Below are positions 227-43,979 of a stretch of 64,000 bases of DNA, one piece after another. Source of the stretch: Pseudomonadota bacterium (lineage in GTDB: Bacteria; Bdellovibrionota; Bdellovibrionia; Bdellovibrionales; SG-bin7); assembly GCA_034439715.1 (NCBI GenBank), contig JAWXAY010000033.1, forward strand, positions 15,647 through 79,646, in the 5' to 3' direction. The notes beneath the pieces are model-generated. The model made no database searches. It worked only from the letters and a program-made list of their open reading frames with translations, and was not told where the DNA came from. Positions within the stretch are counted from its first letter, which is position 1; every line of letters begins with the position of its first letter. The translations under genes and the position numbers were made by a program.

Positions 227-326
227 AAGTGCTCCTTTTGGGAGACTCCATTGCAAGATGGGGCACACAAAGGAAAGGCACTATAGCAACAACAGAAGAA
301 TTACTTGGTTCGAAAACCGGACGTTA

Positions 327-713
327 TTACTTTTTCTTGGTTTTTTTAGCGATTTTTGCAGATTTGATAGGCTTTGAGGGTTTAGCGGCCTTTGCCACCT
401 TTGCTTCTTTTAAGGGTTTAGCTGTTGGAACCTTTACGGCCTTGGCTTGTTTAGCCACCTTTGCAGCGATGGCTTCTTGTTTCGCTTGGGCCTTGGCCTG
501 GATTTTAGCTTCTATTTTAAGATTTTTTCTTTGCATGAGGAGACTTTCGATAATGTCATATGCCTCTTTTTGTAGATCATTCTCGAAAATAAAACGATAA
601 AGTCCCTCAACTTCTTGGGATTGTCTAAATTTTCTGAGCGTTGTTGGAGCCTGTTCTGACGTCGAAAAACTAATGCTTGCTCCATCACCAGACAAAGTAA
701 CTTTTGCTGCCAT
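327..713 (-). CDS. Hypothetical protein with Lys/Ala/Pro-rich histone-H1-like C-terminal tail
   Basis: ~60-aa globular N-terminus, then xAK/xPK repeats (22 Lys in the last 66 aa); GGAGG RBS; TTGACT-N17-TAGAAA sigma70-like promoter upstream. Confidence 0.8.
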   Translation of the reverse strand: MAAKVTLSGDGASISFSTSEQAPTTLRKFRQSQEVEGLYRFIFENDLQKEAYDIIESLLMQRKNLKIEAKIQAKAQAKQEAIAAKVAKQAKAVKVPTAKPLKEAKVAKAAKPSKPIKSAKIAKKTKKK

Positions 714-855
714 AAAAGCCTCCCCAAAAAAAGATAGAATAAATCAATAGTCATTTTCTAGGCTAATTATTGCGTAAAGTCAATGACCCCCAGGTGTTGG
801 AAAAACGAACTGTTTAGACTAATAAAGTTAGGACGTATAAATGAAAGGCTGATTT

Positions 856-1728
856 TTGATAATACTGGATGGTAAAGAAGTTTCTCTTCGTTGTACGGAA
901 CTTACTAAGGCTCGCAGTAGTGAATTCCAGAGACAAAATGGGCGAGCGCCGGGCCTTGCGGTTATTCTGGTGGGAGGAGACTCAGCCAGCCAAGTTTATG
1001 TCAAAAATAAAATCAAATCCTGCGAAGCTAGTGGCATACTCTCGTTCCCCCATTATTTAAGGGCGGAGACAGAAAGTTCTGAGCTTGAAGACCTTATTGA
1101 GTCGCTAAATAATAAGTCTGAAGTGGATGGAATCTTGTTACAACTTCCGTTGCCGTCTCATCTAGACAAAGAATATTTTATCGAGCTAATTGCTCCCTTA
1201 AAAGACGTTGATGGGCTTGGCTACGACAGCTTGGGGCGGCTTTGGGCAGGTAGGCCTCGAGTCATCCCCTGTACACCTAAAGGCGTGATTAGAATTTTAA
1301 AACATTATAATTTGGATCTTGCTGGCAAGCGGGCAGTTGTCATCGGAAGAAGTGAAATAGTTGGCAAACCAATGGCGCAATTGTTATTGATGGAAAACGC
1401 CACTGTTACGATTTGTCATTCTAAAACTAAAGACATCAACGAGTATTCCAGACAAGCTGATATCGTTGTCGTGGCCGCGGGACGTCCGCGACTTTTCGGC
1501 AAAGAAAATTTTAAGAAAGATTCCATTGTAATTGATGTGGGAATTCACCGGATACCAGACGGCAATGGCACGAATACCAAACTTTGCGGTGATGTTCGAT
1601 TTGATGAGCTTGCGGGGCACTGCTTAGCGGCCACGCCCGTTCCTGGGGGAGTGGGACCAATGACAATAGCGATGTTGCTAGAAAATACCTTAGATCTAGC
1701 GACTACAAACAAAGTAGCGAAAAACTAA
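856..1728 (+). CDS. folD: Bifunctional methylenetetrahydrofolate dehydrogenase/cyclohydrolase
   Basis: YVKNKIKSC, VDGILLQLPLP, KDVDG, PCTPKG, GRSEIVGKP, TPVPGGVGPMT motifs. Confidence 0.97.
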   Translation: MIILDGKEVSLRCTELTKARSSEFQRQNGRAPGLAVILVGGDSASQVYVKNKIKSCEASGILSFPHYLRAETESSELEDLIESLNNKSEVDGILLQLPLPSHLDKEYFIELIAPLKDVDGLGYDSLGRLWAGRPRVIPCTPKGVIRILKHYNLDLAGKRAVVIGRSEIVGKPMAQLLLMENATVTICHSKTKDINEYSRQADIVVVAAGRPRLFGKENFKKDSIVIDVGIHRIPDGNGTNTKLCGDVRFDELAGHCLAATPVPGGVGPMTIAMLLENTLDLATTNKVAKN

Positions 1729-3623
1729 AAACCAAATTTTTTCGGATCTTCATTTATCATCATTGCCGAAATAAGCTTGGGAACATATTCGCGAGTCTCG
1801 CAAGACATCATGTGGAACTCATGTAAAAACCAATAATCGGGAGACTGTTCGCCCCACTTTTCTGCTAAATCCCACCAGTCGTCGCCCTTGCTTGTTTTGA
1901 GATTCCCAAATTTATTGTTGATTCGTTCGTGGGCTAAGTCGGGTTTTTTGACTAAAGGTTTATTTTTGAAGTTTTGCTTAAAGAACGCATCATACTTATC
2001 GACACTTACAATATTTCGAATATAGGAATAAATCCCACCCGCGCCATTGTTGTAGGCGGCAAAAGCAAGCTTGTAGTCGGCTTTAATAAAATATTTTAAT
2101 AGAAAATCAAAGTAATTTATTGCCGCTGTCGAGGCTTTCATAAAATCCCCTCGCTCATCGCGGGTGTCGGCCTCCCCGTTAACCAGTGCAAAAGTTTTTA
2201 GTCCACGTTCACGGCCAGTTGCTCGCATGAATTGCCAGGGTCCCACGGCACCAGAACTGCTGACTTCAATTATCGGAGTAGGCTTAAAAAAACGTGGCGA
2301 CTCGACGAGTGTCGTAAAAAAGAAGTTTGCCGGAACGTCCAAAGTTTCAAACTGATTTTTTATTTTTTCGAAGTATACTTTCGAAGCTTTAAAAAATCGA
2401 ACAAGAGACGGCTTATAGTTTATCTCGGCTGAATCTCTCCTAAAGCAGTGCGGAATCGAAATTTTATTTCCTTGCCAACGCTGTATCCATTTTTGTGTTA
2501 TTTGGTGGCCATAAGTTTCTTCAGGAGTAAAAGTCAGCGCCGAAGAATTTTTTATGGGAAACTCCAATGGAGGAAAGTCGCGACTGAATTGCTCATTAAT
2601 AAGAGAAGTCCTAGGTTTCTGTAAATTGATACTGATAAAAGCATTATTGTTAATGGCGGGTGCCATTCGGGGATTGACCGATAGATCGGGCTGCAGCAAA
2701 GGCTTTTTCGCTGGTTCTATATTTTTACCGTTAAAATCCACAAAAAGGTCAAAATAATTTTCGGTGTCGGGAATTTCAAATCTAATGGCGACTTGTCCGT
2801 TTTGGGTATTTCCAATGAGTTTTAAACTTTGAAAAGGCAAGAAGTGAGTGCCACAAGTGATATTTACTTGAGGCAGCGGCTGCCCCGTAAGGTCTGTGTT
2901 CTGCAGCTCTCCTTCAAGACAAATTTTTTGATTCGAGTTGATCGCGAGCTCTATTTTAAAGATTGACCTTCCCATAGAAATTTCAGAAGCAAATGCACTT
3001 ACTGCTGTAGAAGCTGTAAACTTCTCTATAAAAATCGGAAGCAACGGATGAGTCAGCAAAAACTTGTCAAGCAATTCTAATGTACTGGCTTGATTTAAAA
3101 AGAGTAAGCGTGCTTTAGCCGTGACGTTTCTCATGGTAAACGAGGTCGAAGCGCCGTCGGCTTTTAACACTCCCACATATGTTTGGCATTCAGTCGTAGA
3201 ACAGAAGACTTTTAGAGTGGATTGACTGTTTAATGCTTTGAGATCAACAACGACTTTATTTGAAGTCGGTGCCTCACCTGAAAAAATGAATTCATCATTA
3301 GGGTTTTCAAGACTTACCCTGATAGTCATATTTTCGGGGACCGCATCGGTGTCAGGTCCAATATCAACACTAACAACTCTCGAAGTGAGTATTTTATCTG
3401 ATACTGATTTAGGGTTCGAAGCTGCTTTTGCGGCAGAAAGTGCCTTGTCAGAACCGTTCGAGGCCCGGGTATAAACGCGAGAGTTTTTAGGAGAGGTACC
3501 ACCTGTTAGTTCCGTCGAGTCGAAAACTTCGGGATTAAAATCGCCAAATTCCGATTTTCCACATGAGCTTAAAATCAGCGCGGCCAAACTAGTAAAAATT
3601 AAATTTTTAAATAAATTCACCAC
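1725..3623 (-). CDS. Lipoprotein with C-terminal lytic transglycosylase (SLT/MltD-like) domain
   Basis: Lipobox LILSSC; LVES (catalytic Glu), GAVGPWQFMRATG, AAYNNG, ETREYVPK motifs; ~350-aa unassigned N-terminal region. Confidence 0.88.
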   Translation of the reverse strand: MVNLFKNLIFTSLAALILSSCGKSEFGDFNPEVFDSTELTGGTSPKNSRVYTRASNGSDKALSAAKAASNPKSVSDKILTSRVVSVDIGPDTDAVPENMTIRVSLENPNDEFIFSGEAPTSNKVVVDLKALNSQSTLKVFCSTTECQTYVGVLKADGASTSFTMRNVTAKARLLFLNQASTLELLDKFLLTHPLLPIFIEKFTASTAVSAFASEISMGRSIFKIELAINSNQKICLEGELQNTDLTGQPLPQVNITCGTHFLPFQSLKLIGNTQNGQVAIRFEIPDTENYFDLFVDFNGKNIEPAKKPLLQPDLSVNPRMAPAINNNAFISINLQKPRTSLINEQFSRDFPPLEFPIKNSSALTFTPEETYGHQITQKWIQRWQGNKISIPHCFRRDSAEINYKPSLVRFFKASKVYFEKIKNQFETLDVPANFFFTTLVESPRFFKPTPIIEVSSSGAVGPWQFMRATGRERGLKTFALVNGEADTRDERGDFMKASTAAINYFDFLLKYFIKADYKLAFAAYNNGAGGIYSYIRNIVSVDKYDAFFKQNFKNKPLVKKPDLAHERINNKFGNLKTSKGDDWWDLAEKWGEQSPDYWFLHEFHMMSCETREYVPKLISAMMINEDPKKFGF

Positions 3624-36543: not shown

Positions 36544-37017
36544 CTATTGCCGGGCTTTTTGTTCTTTTACGATTTCAGTAAGGGCGGCGGAAGTCGGGCT
36601 CGAGTATTCCATGCCTTCCACAAACTTATGGTTTTCACGAGTATCAGCATCAAGCTTACCAATAATGACATTGGCCTTGCGCAATCTCTCAGCAAGACTA
36701 GTCAACATTGACCTCGCCCAATCAGGCAGTTCATCCAAAATAGTGTTATAGGCGGCTTCGTCGACCATTACGGCGCGCACTTCAGTTAACGCTTGGGCTG
36801 TTGCAGAGCGAGGCTGTTGGTCTAAAAGTGCAAACTCGCCAAGAGAGTGACCTTCTTCAACTACCGCGATTGAGAGCTTGTTTCCTTTAGGACCTTTTTT
36901 ATGGATCTCTACTCGGCCTTCTTGAATTACGTAAAACTGAAAACTTTTTTCGCCCTCGTTAAAAAGAATATCGCCAGCGTTAAAGCGTACGCCTTCCAAT
37001 TGTTGTTTTTCAAACAT
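36544..37017 (-). CDS. Cyclic-nucleotide-binding domain protein (no HTH)
   Basis: [23 protein letters not shown]. Confidence 0.88.
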
Positions 37018-37412
37018 TACTTAGTTGTCTTTTTGGCCTTTTTTTTTAGTTTGGCCCTGATTGTTTTTGAAAATTTCTGCTTATGCGTTGTGGCTTTCTT
37101 TTTTACAGTTTCGAAGTGCCCCTTAGCCTCTGATTTTGATTTTTGAAAGAAGCCAATAACACTGGCGATTTCCTTATCAAACTGCCCTTGCAATTTATTG
37201 ATTGTTTTTAGGACTTCATTATATCGACTCTCAAGCTGCTTAACTCGACCTCTATTCTTAGGGCTCAGCTTGGATTGAAAGTCCACTTTACGAACTTCAC
37301 TAGCCAGTCTAACAACTTCAGATTTTATTTTGTCCACGCTGTTAAGTTTAAGAATTTCGTCTTTAAGCTTTTTAATTTTGTTTTTGTCTAATTTAAAATC
37401 GCCGATCATCAC
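37017..37412 (-). CDS. Lys-rich helical hypothetical protein
   Basis: 131-aa ORF, AAGGGGG RBS, stop abuts the start of the next gene, basic C-terminus. Confidence 0.7.
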   Translation of the reverse strand: MMIGDFKLDKNKIKKLKDEILKLNSVDKIKSEVVRLASEVRKVDFQSKLSPKNRGRVKQLESRYNEVLKTINKLQGQFDKEIASVIGFFQKSKSEAKGHFETVKKKATTHKQKFSKTIRAKLKKKAKKTTK

Positions 37413-37743
37413 ATGAGCCCCCTTGTTTTAGGCCCAAGTATATTCATTTATTTGGCACTAAGCTAGCGCCAAATTGCGCACCATCGGTGCCATCTAACGG
37501 CGTTTTTTTGTAATAAGACCACCGATTGTGTCGTCTCTGTTTACAGTTTCTCAAGTAAATTCCTCGATTATACGCGCTTTGGTAAAAATCGCTAACTTCG
37601 AATTTACCAAACTGTGACCTAGCCATCAGTCTAAAACCCATCTAAAATTTAAGCACTTACAGCTTTCTATTTTCAAATTCAAGCCTCTACATTCAAAAGA
37701 AAAGGCCCTTTTTGTCACTTTGCCTTCACAAATGTCAAAAAAA

Positions 37744-37760
37744 TTGGCAGGGGGTTTGCT
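37744..37760 (+). promoter_or_regulatory. Sigma54-like promoter
   Basis: TTGGCAGGGGGTTTGCT with -24 GG and -12 GC correctly spaced, 96 nt before ATG 37857. Confidence 0.6.
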
Positions 37761-37856
37761 TATTTGAGCCTCGAACACGCTTTATAAAATTGGGCCTTGG
37801 CTTGGTGCTATGGTTCGAGAATTTAATTTAACAACATTTTTCATAAGGAGTAAAAT

Positions 37857-38912
37857 ATGAAAAAAATTATATCGTCGATTGCTGTCGTTGCAGTCGCCTT
37901 TAGTATGTCGGCACAAGCTGAACAGAAACAAGAAATGGAAACTATTAATATTGAGGGTTTAGATAGCAAGAATACGACTCTTACTAGCCTTGGTCAAACT
38001 GGAGTTAACCTTCTTGTCAACACTGGAAACTTAGTTATTGCTTTAAACAATAATATAAACGCACTTCCAGATGGTTTAGACAAAAAAGCTGATGATCTTC
38101 AGAAATGTATTGCTGAAAACTTTGAGAAGTTCGAAAAATATGATGGCGATAAACCGGTTACAGTTGCAATGTGTACTGTTGGTTCAGTCGTAGATGCAGT
38201 CGGTATTGTTATCGAAAAAACAACAGGCGCTGCTTTTCGTATAACTGCAGTTCCCGGAAAACTTTTGGCAGATGCTGGCAGTTCACTGCTTGCCGATGTG
38301 GCGGTAGTTGTTGATTCAATGAACGATAAAGATATGACTAAAATCCCTGGTATGTGGGCATATCAACTTGGTTACGTTATCGCTGCAGGTTCTGTTGGCG
38401 TTGTTGGCGAAATCACTGGCGAGATGATTCAATTTATTTCTGATAAAGGTCAGAAAACAGTTGAATTAGTAATCAATGGTGTTCGCACTGGAATCAAAGT
38501 TGCGCATAAAGGTGCCGTTATACTTGTGCACTACTCTATTAAAGCCGGTAAAGAAGTTGGCGAGCGCGTAGTTCTAGTTGTTGGCGACGCTTTAGTATCA
38601 GCTATTGACACTTACTCTACTCTTCAGTGTGGTCTTGCTACTGGTGCAAAAGCTGGCACTAACATCGTTCTTGATCTTTTCCGATCACAAGATACGATCG
38701 ATCAAAGAGAACGCGAAGAGCGTGGTAATGCTTGTGACTACAATCGCAATCTTGCTGCAGATGCAGGTCACATCGTATTAAAAATATTAACTATTTCTAT
38801 CCGAGCGTTCACAAACGAATCGTATGAAGAGTTTATGGCTAAAGGTGGAAAAAACAATTTCTGCCCCAACGGCTATAAAAGTGATCGCAAAGGTTTTCAA
38901 GTTTGCAAATAA
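37857..38912 (+). CDS. Secreted amphipathic-helical protein, paralog 1
   Basis: Signal peptide ending SAQA; AAGGAG RBS; shares many blocks with 42914-43816. Confidence 0.85.
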   Translation: MKKIISSIAVVAVAFSMSAQAEQKQEMETINIEGLDSKNTTLTSLGQTGVNLLVNTGNLVIALNNNINALPDGLDKKADDLQKCIAENFEKFEKYDGDKPVTVAMCTVGSVVDAVGIVIEKTTGAAFRITAVPGKLLADAGSSLLADVAVVVDSMNDKDMTKIPGMWAYQLGYVIAAGSVGVVGEITGEMIQFISDKGQKTVELVINGVRTGIKVAHKGAVILVHYSIKAGKEVGERVVLVVGDALVSAIDTYSTLQCGLATGAKAGTNIVLDLFRSQDTIDQREREERGNACDYNRNLAADAGHIVLKILTISIRAFTNESYEEFMAKGGKNNFCPNGYKSDRKGFQVCK

Positions 38913-38947
38913 ATTATTAATATAATTTATTTGTTAGTAATTAAACG

Positions 38948-38980
38948 CAGCCTCTTCGTTAGTGGAGAGGCTGTTTTTTT
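38948..38980 (+). terminator. Intrinsic terminator
   Basis: CAGCCTCT...AGAGGCTG followed by T7. Confidence 0.85.
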
Positions 38981-39006
38981 ATGAAGAGAAAAGTCAGGAG
39001 TAAATT

Positions 39007-39840
39007 ATGAAAACAAAAACCTTCCTAACCCTCTTGGTGTTCTCTGTGTTTTGTGTCAATGCATTTTGTGAAGAATCTGAAGTCTGTCCTAATCCTCAAG
39101 TTGAAAAATATAAATCTGTACAAAAAGAGTTTGATAACGTGGCCATGGATGATGCCATGCGAACTGGCGCCCGAGTCGTTGTCATGATCCCGGGTATAAT
39201 AAAGAAGAATTTTGATCTTGAAAACTTTAACGGCGATGTCTGGCAAGAAATCAAAGGTGGCTACGAATGTATGAAAGACACCCTGACTGGCGGCGCTGAA
39301 TGGTACAACACGGTTCAGAAAGCTACTTTTTGCCCCGTGTCCACATTAACTGGTGTAGTTGTTGATACCAGTGAAACAATAGTAAAAAGCGTGGCGCAAG
39401 TGCCACACGTCATAGGTGACCTAGCTGACTTAGGTGATAATCTCGCCCAAGCAGGTCTTGAAAAAACTTTAGAGCTTTCAAGAAACCCCGATTTCATTTT
39501 AGCCTTTGCAGGTATTCTTGGGACAATACCCATGGGTGTGATTGACCTCGCCTTTAAGGCAACGAGTTTAGTTACCCATTTTGTTGGAAACCTTGTGGAT
39601 ACCATTATTAATTATAATTTGGCAGGAGCTGCAATGTCGGCGGTGAGAATTGGCCAAGGGTTTTATTTATTGAATCCTGAGACGATAGTTGATAGCAGCA
39701 AAGAACTTGGCTGCCGGGTGGGGACAATTCCAGAGGTGATTTATTATTCATTGGGTGATAAAATTGAACCTAGACCGATAAAATCTTCGATTAAACCTTA
39801 TTGTGATGTACGCCGCGGCGATTGTACTGAGTACGATTAG
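39007..39840 (+). CDS. Secreted helical protein, paralog 2 (divergent)
   Basis: Signal peptide; AGGAG RBS; C-terminal KPYCDVRRGDC nearly identical to paralog 3. Confidence 0.8.
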   Translation: MKTKTFLTLLVFSVFCVNAFCEESEVCPNPQVEKYKSVQKEFDNVAMDDAMRTGARVVVMIPGIIKKNFDLENFNGDVWQEIKGGYECMKDTLTGGAEWYNTVQKATFCPVSTLTGVVVDTSETIVKSVAQVPHVIGDLADLGDNLAQAGLEKTLELSRNPDFILAFAGILGTIPMGVIDLAFKATSLVTHFVGNLVDTIINYNLAGAAMSAVRIGQGFYLLNPETIVDSSKELGCRVGTIPEVIYYSLGDKIEPRPIKSSIKPYCDVRRGDCTEYD

Positions 39841-39907
39841 CCTTAGCCAAAGGTCCAATTCGGCGTCACCATTTGTTAATTTTCTCGAGTCCGACTAAAA
39901 TGGGAGC

Positions 39908-41185
39908 ATGGCCAAAACCCCGCTACCCAAAAAACTAAATATTTGTTTTGTTGCTAAAAAGTTTCCGATACTTTCTCGGGTGGCGGATCATGGTTTTTTA
40001 TGGCCAATTGCTAAAGGCCTTACTCAGCTGGGACACAAAGTTACTATACTTTCTAGCCAAAATCCCCAAGGCAAAAAAGAATTTATCGAAGGCAACATTC
40101 GCGCGCTCTATTTAAAAGAAGCCACATTTTCAAGTTCGGCCTCTTTTAGTGATCTCGTTCACGCCAAATTTGTTGAGCTGCATAGCAAAGAGCCTTTTCA
40201 TATTCTACATTCACTTGATACGTCAGCCGCGAGTTTAGAAAAGTTAAAAAAACAGCTTAAGTTTGCCCTGGCCTTTGATGTGGAGGCCACTCAAATTGCT
40301 CAGGTGCTCGCAATTATCGGTATGGCCCAAGAAAACTTCGCTAGCATTATTAATACAGGCACTGCCGTATCCTATAAGTTTTTGAGAACTTATTTAGGAT
40401 CTGACAGAGTCCTGCTTAATTCTGCCGACGGTATGTTCGTCACGACTCCTCAGCAGCGGATTGTTCTAGAGCGCTACTATTTGTATCCCGACACTCGCAT
40501 TTATACCGTTCCTTATGGTGTAGAAATGAAAAACTTAGAGTTGAAGGCCAAATCAGAAGGGCTCATGAAAGAGGTGGGTTTGCCAGAGGGAACTCAAGTG
40601 GTGTTAACTATTACTGACATGACTGAACTCGAGGAGATCAGACATTTGCTCGTGGCTTTTCAAAAGGTAACAATTAAAAAGCCGAGTACTCGTTTAATTA
40701 TTATTGGCAATGGTCCGCTAAAAAAAGAAATAGAATATGAGATGCTAACCTTGGCACTAGGATCCCGAGTGATCTTTGCAGGTGCTGTTTCGGCAGATGT
40801 GATTTCAGACTATATTAGCCTGTGTGATGTTTATGTAAATTTAAGCGCCCGTACCAGCGGGTTCGAACCTACGATGCTCGAAGCAATGGCGCAAAAAAAG
40901 GTAATTGTAGGTTCTGAAGTCAGCCCCATTGCCAATATCGTAGAAGACGGACGTGATGGGTTTTTAATTAGACCTGCCGACACTCTAGCACTTTGCACAC
41001 TCTTAATAGATATTTTCGAGTTCCCACTTTTATCGCGTGAAATTGGCGAAAGTGCCCGCAAAAAAGTCGTAAACTTGTTTGATACCGAGAAAATGGTTAA
41101 TGAGACTACAGGGGCCTATTTTTCAATTTTGGAGCGAACAGGCTGGTATTCTAAATCTCAGACTAAGGACCTGCCCTTATTTTAA
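39908..41185 (+). CDS. Glycosyltransferase family 4
   Basis: GT-B features: IIGNGP, EPTMLEAMA, IVEDGRDGFL. Confidence 0.9.
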   Translation: MAKTPLPKKLNICFVAKKFPILSRVADHGFLWPIAKGLTQLGHKVTILSSQNPQGKKEFIEGNIRALYLKEATFSSSASFSDLVHAKFVELHSKEPFHILHSLDTSAASLEKLKKQLKFALAFDVEATQIAQVLAIIGMAQENFASIINTGTAVSYKFLRTYLGSDRVLLNSADGMFVTTPQQRIVLERYYLYPDTRIYTVPYGVEMKNLELKAKSEGLMKEVGLPEGTQVVLTITDMTELEEIRHLLVAFQKVTIKKPSTRLIIIGNGPLKKEIEYEMLTLALGSRVIFAGAVSADVISDYISLCDVYVNLSARTSGFEPTMLEAMAQKKVIVGSEVSPIANIVEDGRDGFLIRPADTLALCTLLIDIFEFPLLSREIGESARKKVVNLFDTEKMVNETTGAYFSILERTGWYSKSQTKDLPLF

Positions 41186-41324
41186 CTTCTGAGATATAAA
41201 ATATCCCATGACGCTAAACAGAATGGAAAATAATTAAAATAATTCCTTCCATGGCCTAAGGCCTCTAAGTATACTTATTAGTAGTTTCAATAGTTTATGC
41301 AATATTCAGCAGGGATTTAAGACC

Positions 41325-41612
41325 ATGACTAAAGCAGACTTAATAAACCTAATTTCTGAAAAAGCCAGTATCACGCGAGTAAAAGCCGAAACTGTGGTGA
41401 ACACTGTTTTTGATACAATTACTGAAGCTTTGGTGAAGGACGACCGCATCGAAATTCGTGGATTTGGCTCATTTGTCAATCGTGCTTACAATGCTCGCCA
41501 AGGACGAAATCCACGTACTGGTGAAGTTATTGATGTCGCACAAAAGCGACGACCATTTTTTAAAGTTGGCAAAGAGTTACGTGAAGAGATTAACAAAGGC
41601 CCCAAAAAATAA
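41325..41612 (+). CDS. HU/IHF-family DNA-binding protein
   Basis: MTKADLI, IEIRGFGSF, GRNPRTG, PFFKVGKELRE. Confidence 0.95.
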   Translation: MTKADLINLISEKASITRVKAETVVNTVFDTITEALVKDDRIEIRGFGSFVNRAYNARQGRNPRTGEVIDVAQKRRPFFKVGKELREEINKGPKK

Positions 41613-41627
41613 TAAGTAGAACAAATA

Positions 41628-42824
41628 TTAGTCGCGAAAAACTGGGATCTCACGAATATCTTTAATTCCAAAAAAAGCCATAAATAGTCGATCCACTCCT
41701 AATGCAATACCACCACTGGGAGGCATTCCTAGTCTTAAAGCTTCGATAAGACCGTCATCTACTGGAGGAACAAAACTTCCAAGGTCGCGTTTCTCTTTTT
41801 GCCAAGTTAAAAACCTTTTAGAGTTTTCTATTGGGTCATTGAGTTCGTCATAGGCGTTGGCAATTTCGAATCCTCTAAAATAGACTTCAAATCGATCGGC
41901 CCAACCCTTTTCATTTAGGCGAGCTAAGGCAGATTGTGACGGCGGAAAGTCTTTTAGAATGAGCGGAGTCACGAGCCCTAAGCGAGGCTCCACATGTTCA
42001 ATGAATAATCTGTGGAATAAATCATTCCAGGAGTCGCTGGGATCAAAATGTGTTCGTCTGTCTATCGCAAGCTTTTTGAGTTCCTCGCGTGAAGTCTGTG
42101 GAGTTAAATCGAAATTAAGGTATTCGCGAAATACCTCGGCCATGGATTTAAGTGTGATAGATCCATCAAAGCGGATTGCACCTTCGATGTTATCATTCAC
42201 ATACTTAAAAAGATCATAGACGTCTTTTTGTATGGCGTCGATTCCAGCAAAACTTCGGTACCACTCAAGCATTGTGAATTCAGCTGCGTGCTGAGGTGTA
42301 TTTTCTTCTTGCCGAAAGCAAGACCTAATTTCAAAAGCATTCTCAATGCCCAAAACTAACGCCCGCTTTAAATGAAACTCAGGGCTTGTAGGCAGACAGT
42401 AACCATTGCTGGTAAAGGGCCTTAAAAAAGTCTCTGAACCAGAAGAAGGCACCAGTGTCGGCGTTTGAATTTCTAAAAAGCCGCTTGTCTCAAAAAATTT
42501 TCTTAAGGATTTTAGAAACCCATTCCATTTGAGCAAATGGTTTTTCTCTTTATTTATTTGTTCGAGCGATTTTTGGCCAATATTTGGCGCCAGAAGTTGA
42601 ATGTGATGTTCTTTCATTAATACAATATCGCCGAGTACGAGAATATCCGATGCCTTGAATCCATGAGTTATAAATTCGCCTTGCTGGGTAAACTCACCTA
42701 AAATCCCATCGGCTATGGGGTCTGACCAGCGACTTTTAATAAGCTCATTTTTAATGTCATCTTTAAGGGCTTTTGGGTAAGGCCGCCACAATGATTTTAG
42801 ATAAATTTCTCGGGTCATATTCAT
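41628..42824 (-). CDS. epmA: EF-P lysyl (beta-lysine) ligase
   Basis: GFLEIQTP, TSPEFHLKR, FRQEE...HAAEFTMLEWY, RFEVYFRGFEIANAYDEL, PSGGIALGVDRL; no anticodon-binding domain. Confidence 0.9.
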   Translation of the reverse strand: MNMTREIYLKSLWRPYPKALKDDIKNELIKSRWSDPIADGILGEFTQQGEFITHGFKASDILVLGDIVLMKEHHIQLLAPNIGQKSLEQINKEKNHLLKWNGFLKSLRKFFETSGFLEIQTPTLVPSSGSETFLRPFTSNGYCLPTSPEFHLKRALVLGIENAFEIRSCFRQEENTPQHAAEFTMLEWYRSFAGIDAIQKDVYDLFKYVNDNIEGAIRFDGSITLKSMAEVFREYLNFDLTPQTSREELKKLAIDRRTHFDPSDSWNDLFHRLFIEHVEPRLGLVTPLILKDFPPSQSALARLNEKGWADRFEVYFRGFEIANAYDELNDPIENSKRFLTWQKEKRDLGSFVPPVDDGLIEALRLGMPPSGGIALGVDRLFMAFFGIKDIREIPVFRD

Positions 42825-42850
42825 CGGGTCATTTTCAACTTATGGGCCTC

Positions 42851-42884
42851 AAAAAAAACAGCCCCTTTATTTTCATAAAGGGGC
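42851..42884 (-). terminator. Intrinsic terminator of paralog 3
   Basis: GCCCCTTTAT-TTTC-ATAAAGGGGC stem with a U-run on the minus strand. Confidence 0.8.
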
Positions 42885-42913
42885 CTTGAATAAATACTAA
42901 ATAACAAATAATT

Positions 42914-43816
42914 TTATTTACCAGAATGATCTAAATCACAGCGGCCGTATCGAACATCGCAGTACGGTTTAACCGGAGTACCACCAGCCATCATGTCTTC
43001 AAAGGTCTCATTCATGATCACTCTAATTGGAAGTGACATAACACGAGCAAAAACCATTAAGAGTCCGTTTCCTGCAGCGCTAAGATCGCCATGTACTACA
43101 TCATGAAGAACCAAAACTACTGCCTTTGCAGCGCCATAAGCATCTTTACCAAGTACACTAACTCGGCCTATAACTGCGTCAGCTACGATAACAACTGCAT
43201 CAGAAGCATACTTGATACCAGTTCTTACACCGTCAACTACAAGCTCTACAGCTTTGCCAGCAACAGTTGAAACAGTATCTAATACCCAAGCTCCAGCTTG
43301 AGCAGCGCGACCAATTACTTGAGAAGCAACGCAAACACCAAGTTGAACTATAAAGAAACCAGGAATGTGGCTGTAAGCTTCCATCGCATCCCACGAGCGT
43401 TTGCTAGTATCTAACATGATGTTAGCAATATCTTTTGCAAACTTAGAGGGAACGGCAATTACTTCTTGAACGCCACTAACACCAGTTAAGATGATAGCAG
43501 TAACCATTTCAGTACCGATTAGAATGGGGCAAAGAACAGGAGCAGTAACACCTTCTCCGTCAACTTCGTCCATGCGATCGCTTAAACACTTAACAAGTTC
43601 AGTAGCATGTTCCGCAAGAGCGGGCATTGCTTTTAACGCAGCTTCGCTGAAAGAAACCACTAAGTTTCCAACATTAATAACGACGTTTACACCAGCGTGA
43701 ACAATTTCACCGGCTTTTTCTGTAGGAAGATTGTTGCCATCTCTATGGCCTGCATTAGCGGTCATCGATACAGCAACAGCTAATCCTGCCAATGAAGAAA
43801 TAATAGATTTTCTCAT
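42914..43816 (-). CDS. Secreted amphipathic-helical protein, paralog 3
   Basis: Signal peptide ending TANA; AAGGAG RBS; VELVVDGVRTGIK and KPYCDVRYGRC shared with paralogs. Confidence 0.85.
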   Translation of the reverse strand: MRKSIISSLAGLAVAVSMTANAGHRDGNNLPTEKAGEIVHAGVNVVINVGNLVVSFSEAALKAMPALAEHATELVKCLSDRMDEVDGEGVTAPVLCPILIGTEMVTAIILTGVSGVQEVIAVPSKFAKDIANIMLDTSKRSWDAMEAYSHIPGFFIVQLGVCVASQVIGRAAQAGAWVLDTVSTVAGKAVELVVDGVRTGIKYASDAVVIVADAVIGRVSVLGKDAYGAAKAVVLVLHDVVHGDLSAAGNGLLMVFARVMSLPIRVIMNETFEDMMAGGTPVKPYCDVRYGRCDLDHSGK

Positions 43817-43979
43817 AGGGTCTCCTTAAGGTTAGTAAAAATTTAAAGCCGAATGCTTTAAAACTCGTCATTCATAGTACTGCAGCGCCTCAATAGCAAG
43901 TTTTTTGGCAGGTATAAGCTAATTTTATGAGGTCTAATCCCATAAATTCGCATTGTTTACAGAAATATGAAAAAAATTC

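Follow-up and report, generated by a model that had tools for sequence, protein, structure and literature searches.

The DNA analysed here (hereafter the window) is a stretch of 64,000 nucleotides of contig JAWXAY010000033.1 (assembly GCA_034439715.1, positions 15,647 to 79,646 of the forward strand) from a bacterium placed by GTDB within the Bdellovibrionales (SG-bin7). It carries three genes, P1, P2 and P3, that a model's reading of the letters alone (the sequence-only reading) had described as paralogues encoding secreted amphipathic-helical proteins with a disulfide C-terminal cap, and had proposed to be membrane-inserting, possibly hetero-oligomeric effectors of no recognised family. All three open reading frames (ORFs) are real and lie at the coordinates and on the strands given in that reading, with P1 at 37857..38912 (plus strand, 351 amino acids), P2 at 39007..39840 (plus strand, 277 amino acids) and P3 at 42914..43816 (minus strand, 300 amino acids). 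By inspection, each begins with a signal peptide of typical n-h-c organization ending in AxA or VxA (residues 1-21 in P1 and 1-22 in P3), and P1-P3 and all their homologues display the hallmarks of Sec export and signal peptidase I cleavage, namely M(R/K)K followed by 12-15 hydrophobic residues and then A-N-A, A-Q-A or V-N-A. The lipobox of bacterial lipoproteins ([LVI][ASTVI][GAS]C) is absent from P1, P2 and P3: the signal peptides of P1 and P3 contain no Cys, while P2 has a Phe at position -1 before both of its candidate Cys residues and its homologue P0014 has no Cys there. The protein bodies are rich in Val, Ala and Gly, as had been described.

Judged by BLASTP with compositional adjustment (E=3e-23, 30% identity over 226 amino acids), P1 and P3 are true paralogues of one undescribed family, which we name type A. 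Because the match is significant under that adjustment, the likeness extends beyond the shared Val/Ala/Gly composition. The motifs listed there as common to P1 and P3 are all present, with slight errors in their spacing as written. The claim of three paralogues stands for this pair and falls for P2, for which no paralogy could be demonstrated, and we found no further paralogues in the window's genome beyond P1, P2 and P3. In type-A alignments the signal peptide is followed by a conserved block G-V-N-x-x-[VI]-N-x-G-N-L-V, an invariant Cys pair (C77/C96 in P3, C84/C106 in P1), A-V-P and L-G motifs (the latter following I-P-G in both P1 and P3), a strongly conserved block V-E-L-x-V-x-G-V-R-T-G-I-K and, close to the C-terminus, a T-L-P-x-R motif. 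The P1 clade is further distinguished by an insertion of ~40 residues that holds a second Cys pair (C258/C293 in P1). A corresponding pair in P2 (C88/C109) completes the set of conserved disulfide candidates, and the conserved pair of both type A and the P2 family likely forms a disulfide in the periplasm; P2 has a probable second pair, C27/C236. The disulfide cap at the C-terminus, by comparison, does not hold as a family feature: apart from P2, it is confined to the window's P3 and to P0004, the closest relative of that protein, and most P3 and P1 orthologues do not have it. Nor is the terminal pair of P1 (C336/C350) equivalent to that of the other two proteins, as it encloses 13 rather than 6 residues and is missing from P1's own orthologues.

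P2 belongs to a second, faster-evolving family adjoining P1, here called type B. It gives no BLASTP match to P1, and its match to P3 is confined to a 12-residue C-terminal motif (E=1e-4). Comparison of type-A and type-B profiles gave E=1.4e-3 with two sequences and E=4.4e-4 with the type-B alignment, the latter with a probability of 34% over the Cys-loop region, where the Cys pairs of the two families align (probabilities of 17-34% across both comparisons). The type-B alignment (A5) has in common a signal peptide, a Cys near the mature N-terminus and amphipathic periodicity, its Cys pair occupies the same relative position as the type-A pair, and type B is confined to the same taxonomic family as type A; a weak type-B match in the genome of another family falls within a histidine kinase and is regarded as fortuitous. 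Taken together, distant homology of P2 with P1 and P3 has slightly better than even odds, and a functional link through the shared C-terminal tail is somewhat more likely than that. As had been noted, both P2 and P3 end in KPYCDVRxGxC (KPYCDVRRGDC at 39793-39825 on the plus strand in P2; KPYCDVRYGRC, residues 283-293, at 42938..42970 on the minus strand in P3), and in the whole genome these two proteins alone carry it, which rules out a general sorting tag. Recent gene conversion is likewise ruled out as the source of the motif, since most synonymous positions differ between the P2 and P3 copies, and the match is thus maintained by selection. Among tails that otherwise cannot be aligned, a looser form, Y-x-D-[VAIT]-R-(x)-G, is shared by four proteins of the P3 clade, three of type B and one P1 orthologue. 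In the closest relative (L016, 3969-4637), the P2 orthologue has no C-terminal Cys motif and is followed, with an overlapping stop/start TAAATG, by a signal-peptide ORF that has no counterpart in the window.

Word-indexed searches of 5.8 billion proteins returned eight relatives for P3, two for P1 and one for P2, and when 1.84 billion cluster representatives were searched exhaustively with a HMMER profile, only six proved to belong to the P1/P3 family. In whole genomes, the P1/P3 profile matched four of the four belonging to the window's own taxonomic family (three genera) and none of 57 from 12 sister families of the order. The named relatives are an uncultured Bdellovibrionales metagenome-assembled genome and 'Proteobacteria bacterium SG_bin7', and the window's organism is present in metagenomes of microbial mats. 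Pfam and NCBIfam scans of P1-P3 gave no family match (Pfam E<=1), relaxing the Pfam threshold to E<=10 for all 15 family members yielded scattered chance matches with no recurring family, three PDB profile searches produced chance matches only (E>=0.9), and no literature on the P1/P3 family was found. The sequence-only reading had recognised no family, and it was right in this. By these searches P1 and P3 are a genuinely unannotated, lineage-restricted family of uncultured Bdellovibrionales, small and well delimited, and are best classed as a new exported family built on amphipathic helices, of unassigned function.

We ranked helical periodicity and hydropathy among 2601 crude ORFs of the window's own genome. 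For periodicity over 150 residues P3 ranks first and P1 twelfth (period 3.67) and P2 seventh (period 3.6), so that the description of these proteins as amphipathic-helical is borne out, in the case of P3 to an extreme degree. Every member of the P3 clade shows a hydrophobicity peak at a period of 3.69 residues over ~155 residues, with a power of ~120-150 (about 140) against a 95th percentile of ~55 in shuffled sequences, and its hydrophobicity autocorrelation is positive at lags of 11, 22 and 33 residues and near zero at lag 14. Set out in rows of 11, residues 121-274 of P3 (42995..43456, minus strand) form 14 amphipathic hendecads in phase, with hydrophobic columns a, d, e and h (plus k). The polar columns are only ~50-65% polar and bear few charges, and conservation does not differ significantly between core and polar hendecad positions. 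This periodic architecture is common to P1, P3 and P2, although the sequence similarity of P2 to the other two is marginal. AlphaFold2 models of P3 (12 sequences; predicted local distance difference test score, pLDDT, 42; predicted template-modelling score, pTM, 0.25) and of P1 (15 sequences; pLDDT 39, pTM 0.33) were too poor for fold comparison, and a Foldseek search of the PDB with the P1 model gave no match at E<0.001, only noise at template-modelling scores of 0.1-0.2 (CorA, F-BAR, ferritin, G protein-coupled receptors), and was not used.

Mature P3 is also unusually hydrophobic. Its grand average of hydropathy (GRAVY) is +0.49 over residues 26-300 and +0.46 from residue 23, which ranks it 165th of 2601, amid multi-pass membrane proteins; other members of the P3 clade score +0.3 to +0.5, with the exception of P0015, the orthologue in genome G001, at +0.08. 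A hydrophobic stretch of ~30 residues is conserved after the Cys loop, and the sole 19-residue window of P3 to reach 1.8 lies there, inside residues 90-122. Because only this one window passes despite the high GRAVY, the hydrophobicity of P3 is distributed over amphipathic helices whose apolar face is broad and is not concentrated in classical transmembrane segments. These values bear on the possibility that the proteins are integral to the inner membrane and have a cleavable signal peptide, with residues ~90-122 and ~150-170 as putative transmembrane helices or as a re-entrant hairpin. Overall GRAVY is within the range of membrane proteins, the family-average Kyte-Doolittle value climbs to 1.94 over residues 100-121, and no charged residue occurs within IPGFFIVQLGVCVASQVIG. 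However, a single segment passes the transmembrane-like threshold, in the P1 clade only barely (1.59), conserved Glu or Asp residues lie inside the hydrophobic stretches, and the dominant signal is one of amphipathic periodicity rather than uniform hydrophobicity; we regard integral membrane topology as very unlikely.

The same periodicity would suit a soluble periplasmic helical bundle of chaperone-like, stress-buffering or ligand- or metal-binding function, in which the hydrophobic faces would be buried within the bundle or in a homo-oligomer, as a hendecad core of a/d/e/h positions also marks straight helical bundles and right-handed coiled coils. GRAVY values near 0 in the P1 clade and in type B fit such a protein, a disulfide and a signal peptide suit a periplasmic resident, and high expression (see below) suits a chaperone or buffer. 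Against this, the P3 clade, with its GRAVY of +0.3 to +0.5 and ~50% Val/Ala/Gly/Ile/Leu, exceeds the usual range of soluble proteins, the phase is kept over ~14 repeats despite conserved Pro and Gly residues, which is unusual for a looped bundle, and no periplasmic chaperone family is matched. We consider a soluble bundle unlikely for these reasons.

The genomic setting is conserved across the family in the order GDH - DHODH - NUDIX - P3 - EpmA ... HU - GT4 glycosyltransferase - [variable slot] - (DUF4286) - Lys-rich protein - (cyclic nucleotide monophosphate (cNMP)-binding protein) - GcvP. P3 orthologues are ~50% identical between genera, compared with 48-50% for EpmA, 53% for DHODH, 67% for GT4 and 74% for GDH. 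Because synteny is conserved and divergence is similar to that of EpmA and DHODH, P3 is by these comparisons a vertically inherited single-copy core gene that diverges about like its housekeeping neighbours. The slot between the GT4 gene and the Lys-rich gene differs from one relative to the next: it holds P1 and P2 in the window, an inverted P1 orthologue and a type-B gene in locus L006, a pair of type-B paralogues in SG_bin7 (P0018 and P0019, which match each other at E=3e-12), and, in genome G003, a divergent type-A gene (P0021; 96% probability and E=3e-9 by hhalign) accompanied by a type-B gene, an HNH gene and a further two secreted paralogues; in G001 it is empty, and P3 alone is carried. 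In the G003 slot, the HNH-endonuclease-like gene (360 amino acids) lies between the two paralogous secreted proteins of 319 and 272 amino acids (locus L010, G003:C9:106800-112500, at 307-3425), which are unrelated to P1-P3. This suggests that the slot is a hotspot of gain and loss of secreted-protein genes.

Effector loci often vary in this way, and the changing content of the P1/P2 slot is one of the features in keeping with the proposal that P1-P3 are secreted alpha-helical pore-formers or membrane disruptors directed against prey or competitors, each a soluble disulfide-locked bundle from which residues ~90-122 and the helices that follow would insert. The order to which the lineage belongs is one of predatory bacteria. 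The proteins have signal peptides, amphipathic helices and the ~30-residue hydrophobic stretch after the Cys loop, and the presence of two to three related genes in one locus recalls the tripartite ClyA-family toxins. Like ClyA, Hbl, Nhe and AhlABC, which are helical proteins of ~300-390 amino acids, the proteins have one markedly hydrophobic stretch and neighbouring paralogues. In ClyA this stretch lies in the middle of the protein, whereas in P1 and P3 it lies in the N-terminal third. Furthermore, none of the 15 family members matches HlyE, Hbl/Nhe, colicin or other toxin families at E<=10, and no PDB chain is matched; the colicin pore-forming domain (PF01024, a bundle of ten helices in which a hydrophobic hairpin is buried) is among the profiles that give no match. 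P3 behaves as a conserved single-copy core gene and stands alone in one relative, a mature GRAVY of ~+0.5 for P3 is far above what would be expected of the water-soluble precursor of a pore-former, and no dedicated secretion or immunity genes lie near the locus. We therefore find a pore-forming role distinctly unlikely, although proteins of this kind would be founders of a new toxin family. The earlier proposal of membrane-inserting effectors is thus upheld in its physical part (exported, amphipathic and very hydrophobic proteins with an apolipoprotein-like 11-residue periodicity), while no link to alpha-pore-forming toxins or to prey emerged. The suggestion of a hetero-oligomer gained no support either; a three-part complex is not required, because one relative carries P3 alone.

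Evidence on how much of these proteins is made comes from their promoters, terminators and codon usage. As claimed, P1 has a sigma-54-type promoter, and the call is well supported by comparison among relatives: the -24/-12 element TGGCAGGGGGTTTGCT (TGGCAG-GGGGT-TTGCT; 37745..37760, plus strand) ends 96 nucleotides before the P1 start codon, has the canonical GG and GC at the correct spacing, and is the sole exact match to TGGCA-N6-TTGCW within the window, where 0.39 are expected by chance. The same element recurs at -110 to -130 upstream of the P1 orthologues in three other assemblies, of the P1-slot genes of SG_bin7 and of the window's closest relative, and of the P3 orthologues of SG_bin7 and L006, as well as, with one mismatch outside the GG, that of G003; the type-B gene of L006 has one at -42. 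Sigma-54 control appears ancestral to the whole gene set. The window's P3 departs from known RpoN promoters in that the -24 GG of its degenerate element TGcCAAAAAACTTGCT (43895..43910, minus strand) reads GC (TGcCA), and the element is absent altogether from P3 of the closest relative, so that in the window's genus P3 has probably moved to another promoter. The genome encodes one rpoN and 15 sigma-54 activators and contains 57 exact TGGCA-N6-TTGCW sites (G000), of which 25 lie in non-coding DNA, a strong enrichment; this argues that the regulon is real, and the lineage appears to have a large one. Among the genes preceded by such sites are a flagellar rod gene, fliF, fliR, multicopper-oxidase-like and CsbD-like genes and many signal-peptide hypotheticals (for example G000 C29:104331, C69:28849, C69:14461 and C108:7969). 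No convincing activator site common to the sigma-54 promoters emerged from a search of the DNA upstream of them, in which only short AT-rich words recur (e.g. AAATGTC). The three closest relatives show good conservation of the 96-nucleotide P1 leader (37761-37856), in which a GGGCCTTGGCTTGGTGC block is included. A structured leader was considered and rejected, as RNAalifold gave a weak hairpin of 9 pairs (-5 kcal/mol) and no Rfam family scored above threshold.

Both P1 and P3 have the strong Shine-Dalgarno sites and the hairpin/T-run terminators of their own that had been attributed to them, at 38947..38983 (plus strand) after P1 and at 42860..42885 (minus strand) after P3. The P1 terminator ends 24 nucleotides ahead of the P2 start, and a similar hairpin is found between the corresponding genes of SG_bin7 and of the closest relative. 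Because the space between the P1 hairpin and the P2 start leaves no room for a promoter, P2 is probably expressed, at a lower level, from transcripts that read through the P1 terminator. The codon adaptation index (CAI), computed against RpoB/C, EF-Tu, EF-G, DnaK, GroEL, AtpD and several ribosomal proteins, places P1 third and P3 seventh of 2587 ranked ORFs, with GroEL sixth, and P2 at rank 1158, which is average codon usage. By the effective number of codons P3 ranks 30th and P1 54th of 2601, in a list whose top 14 entries are contig-edge artefacts. Synonymous divergence (pS) from the closest relative is 0.56 for P3 and 0.50 for P1, compared with 0.72-0.81 for neighbouring genes, and these lower values are consistent with codon selection. 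With ratios of nonsynonymous to synonymous change (dN/dS) of 0.16 and 0.30, P3 and P1, respectively, are under purifying selection. Codon usage, strong ribosome-binding sites and terminators of their own are jointly suggestive, though not conclusive, of abundance for P1 and P3, and the codon data suggest a very abundant protein, which fits a structural role in the envelope at least as well as that of an effector.

The nearest known analogues by architecture are the exchangeable apolipoproteins (PF01442) and the perilipins, with which P3 shares an amphipathic 11-residue repeat (3.67 residues per turn) kept in phase over ~150 residues with occasional Pro or Gly, secretion by signal peptide and the lack of an enzymatic motif on either side. 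P3 has the tandem 11/22-residue repeat of the apolipoproteins, without a match to the family profile (no Pfam match at E<=10 among 15 members) and without a class A charge distribution. In class A helices, Lys and Arg lie at the interface and Asp and Glu at the centre of a wide polar face, whereas the polar face of P1 and P3 is narrow and weakly charged. P1 and P3 are also far more hydrophobic than apolipoproteins, have a Cys-loop module conserved at the N-terminus, and occur in a single bacterial lineage.

As the proteins are exported, amphipathic-helical and unusually hydrophobic, membrane or lipid association of some form is plausible. The model we favour, to which we assign a probability of only about 0.4, is that P1 and P3 are abundant, membrane-associated structural or coating proteins of the producer's own envelope, with P3 as the constant component and P1 and type B as exchangeable accessories. 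After export and disulfide formation, the broad Val/Ala/Ile face would lie in or on a leaflet of one of the cell's own envelope membranes, for which the candidates are the inner membrane on its periplasmic side, the outer membrane and the flagellar sheath, and the proteins would act there as abundant structural, coating or stabilising components rather than as enzymes. P3 would provide the constant core, while P1 and P2 would be accessory variants of the variable slot made on demand through a sigma-54 activator, P2 at a lower level through read-through, and the shared Y-x-D-x-R-(x)-G tail would serve as a short recognition motif for a common partner. A role in the flagellar sheath is a speculative sub-case of this model, hinted at only by the flagellar genes that share sigma-54 control.

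Several observations weigh against an envelope coat. The helices do not have the strongly charged polar face of class A lipid-surface helices, the members of the family are for the most part acidic or close to neutral, and the P1 clade and type B, with their low GRAVY, could be ordinary soluble helical bundles. The all-helical assignment itself derives from the periodicity, the AlphaFold pLDDT values being 42 and 39, and the low-pLDDT output contains beta strands at residues ~43-57 and ~92-123. The sequencing runs in which the locus occurs are DNA only, from microbial-mat metagenomes, and the spread of the CAI is narrow (median 0.705, top 0.795), which makes the estimate of expression soft; the window's own P3 promoter copy is without the essential GG. 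Finally, the site of the proteins may be the periplasm, the outer membrane or the medium.

A stronger form of the envelope-coat model would see in these proteins a new class of very abundant exported membrane-coat proteins, stapled by a disulfide, whose ~150 residues of in-phase hendecad helix would lie in the plane of a leaflet outside the cytoplasm, at any of the three candidate sites named above, and whose interchangeable sigma-54-controlled variants (P1 and type B) would tune membrane properties; we hold this form to be unlikely. Such coat proteins could be regarded as functional analogues of apolipoproteins and perilipins in a lineage of predatory bacteria. Were P1 and P3 indeed among the most abundant exported proteins, they would constitute a major unrecognised envelope component of the lineage, with an architecture that has no described counterpart in the bacterial periplasm or in outer membranes. 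They would then bear on how membranes are built and remodelled in Bdellovibrio-like bacteria, and would show cleanly that a long hendecad amphipathic helix occurs in nature beyond the lipid-binding proteins of eukaryotes.

Some neighbouring features of the window complete the description of the locus. The GT4 glycosyltransferase gene (39908-41185, plus strand) begins 67 nucleotides 3' of P2 on the same strand and lies beside the variable slot in every relative. In relatives, a DUF4286 gene lies between the Lys-rich gene and the P1 slot (L006, 11152-11502; L007, 18562-18906); in the window its place is taken by a 445-nucleotide non-coding gap (37413-37856), and no remnant of it is detectable across the 64 kb. 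Next to this gap, at 36544-37412 on the minus strand, a Lys-rich, probably coiled-coil protein of 131 amino acids is encoded with a one-base overlap with a 157-amino-acid protein with a cNMP-binding domain; the Lys-rich gene adjoins GcvP in all relatives examined, and its cNMP-binding partner is kept in G001 and in the closest relative.

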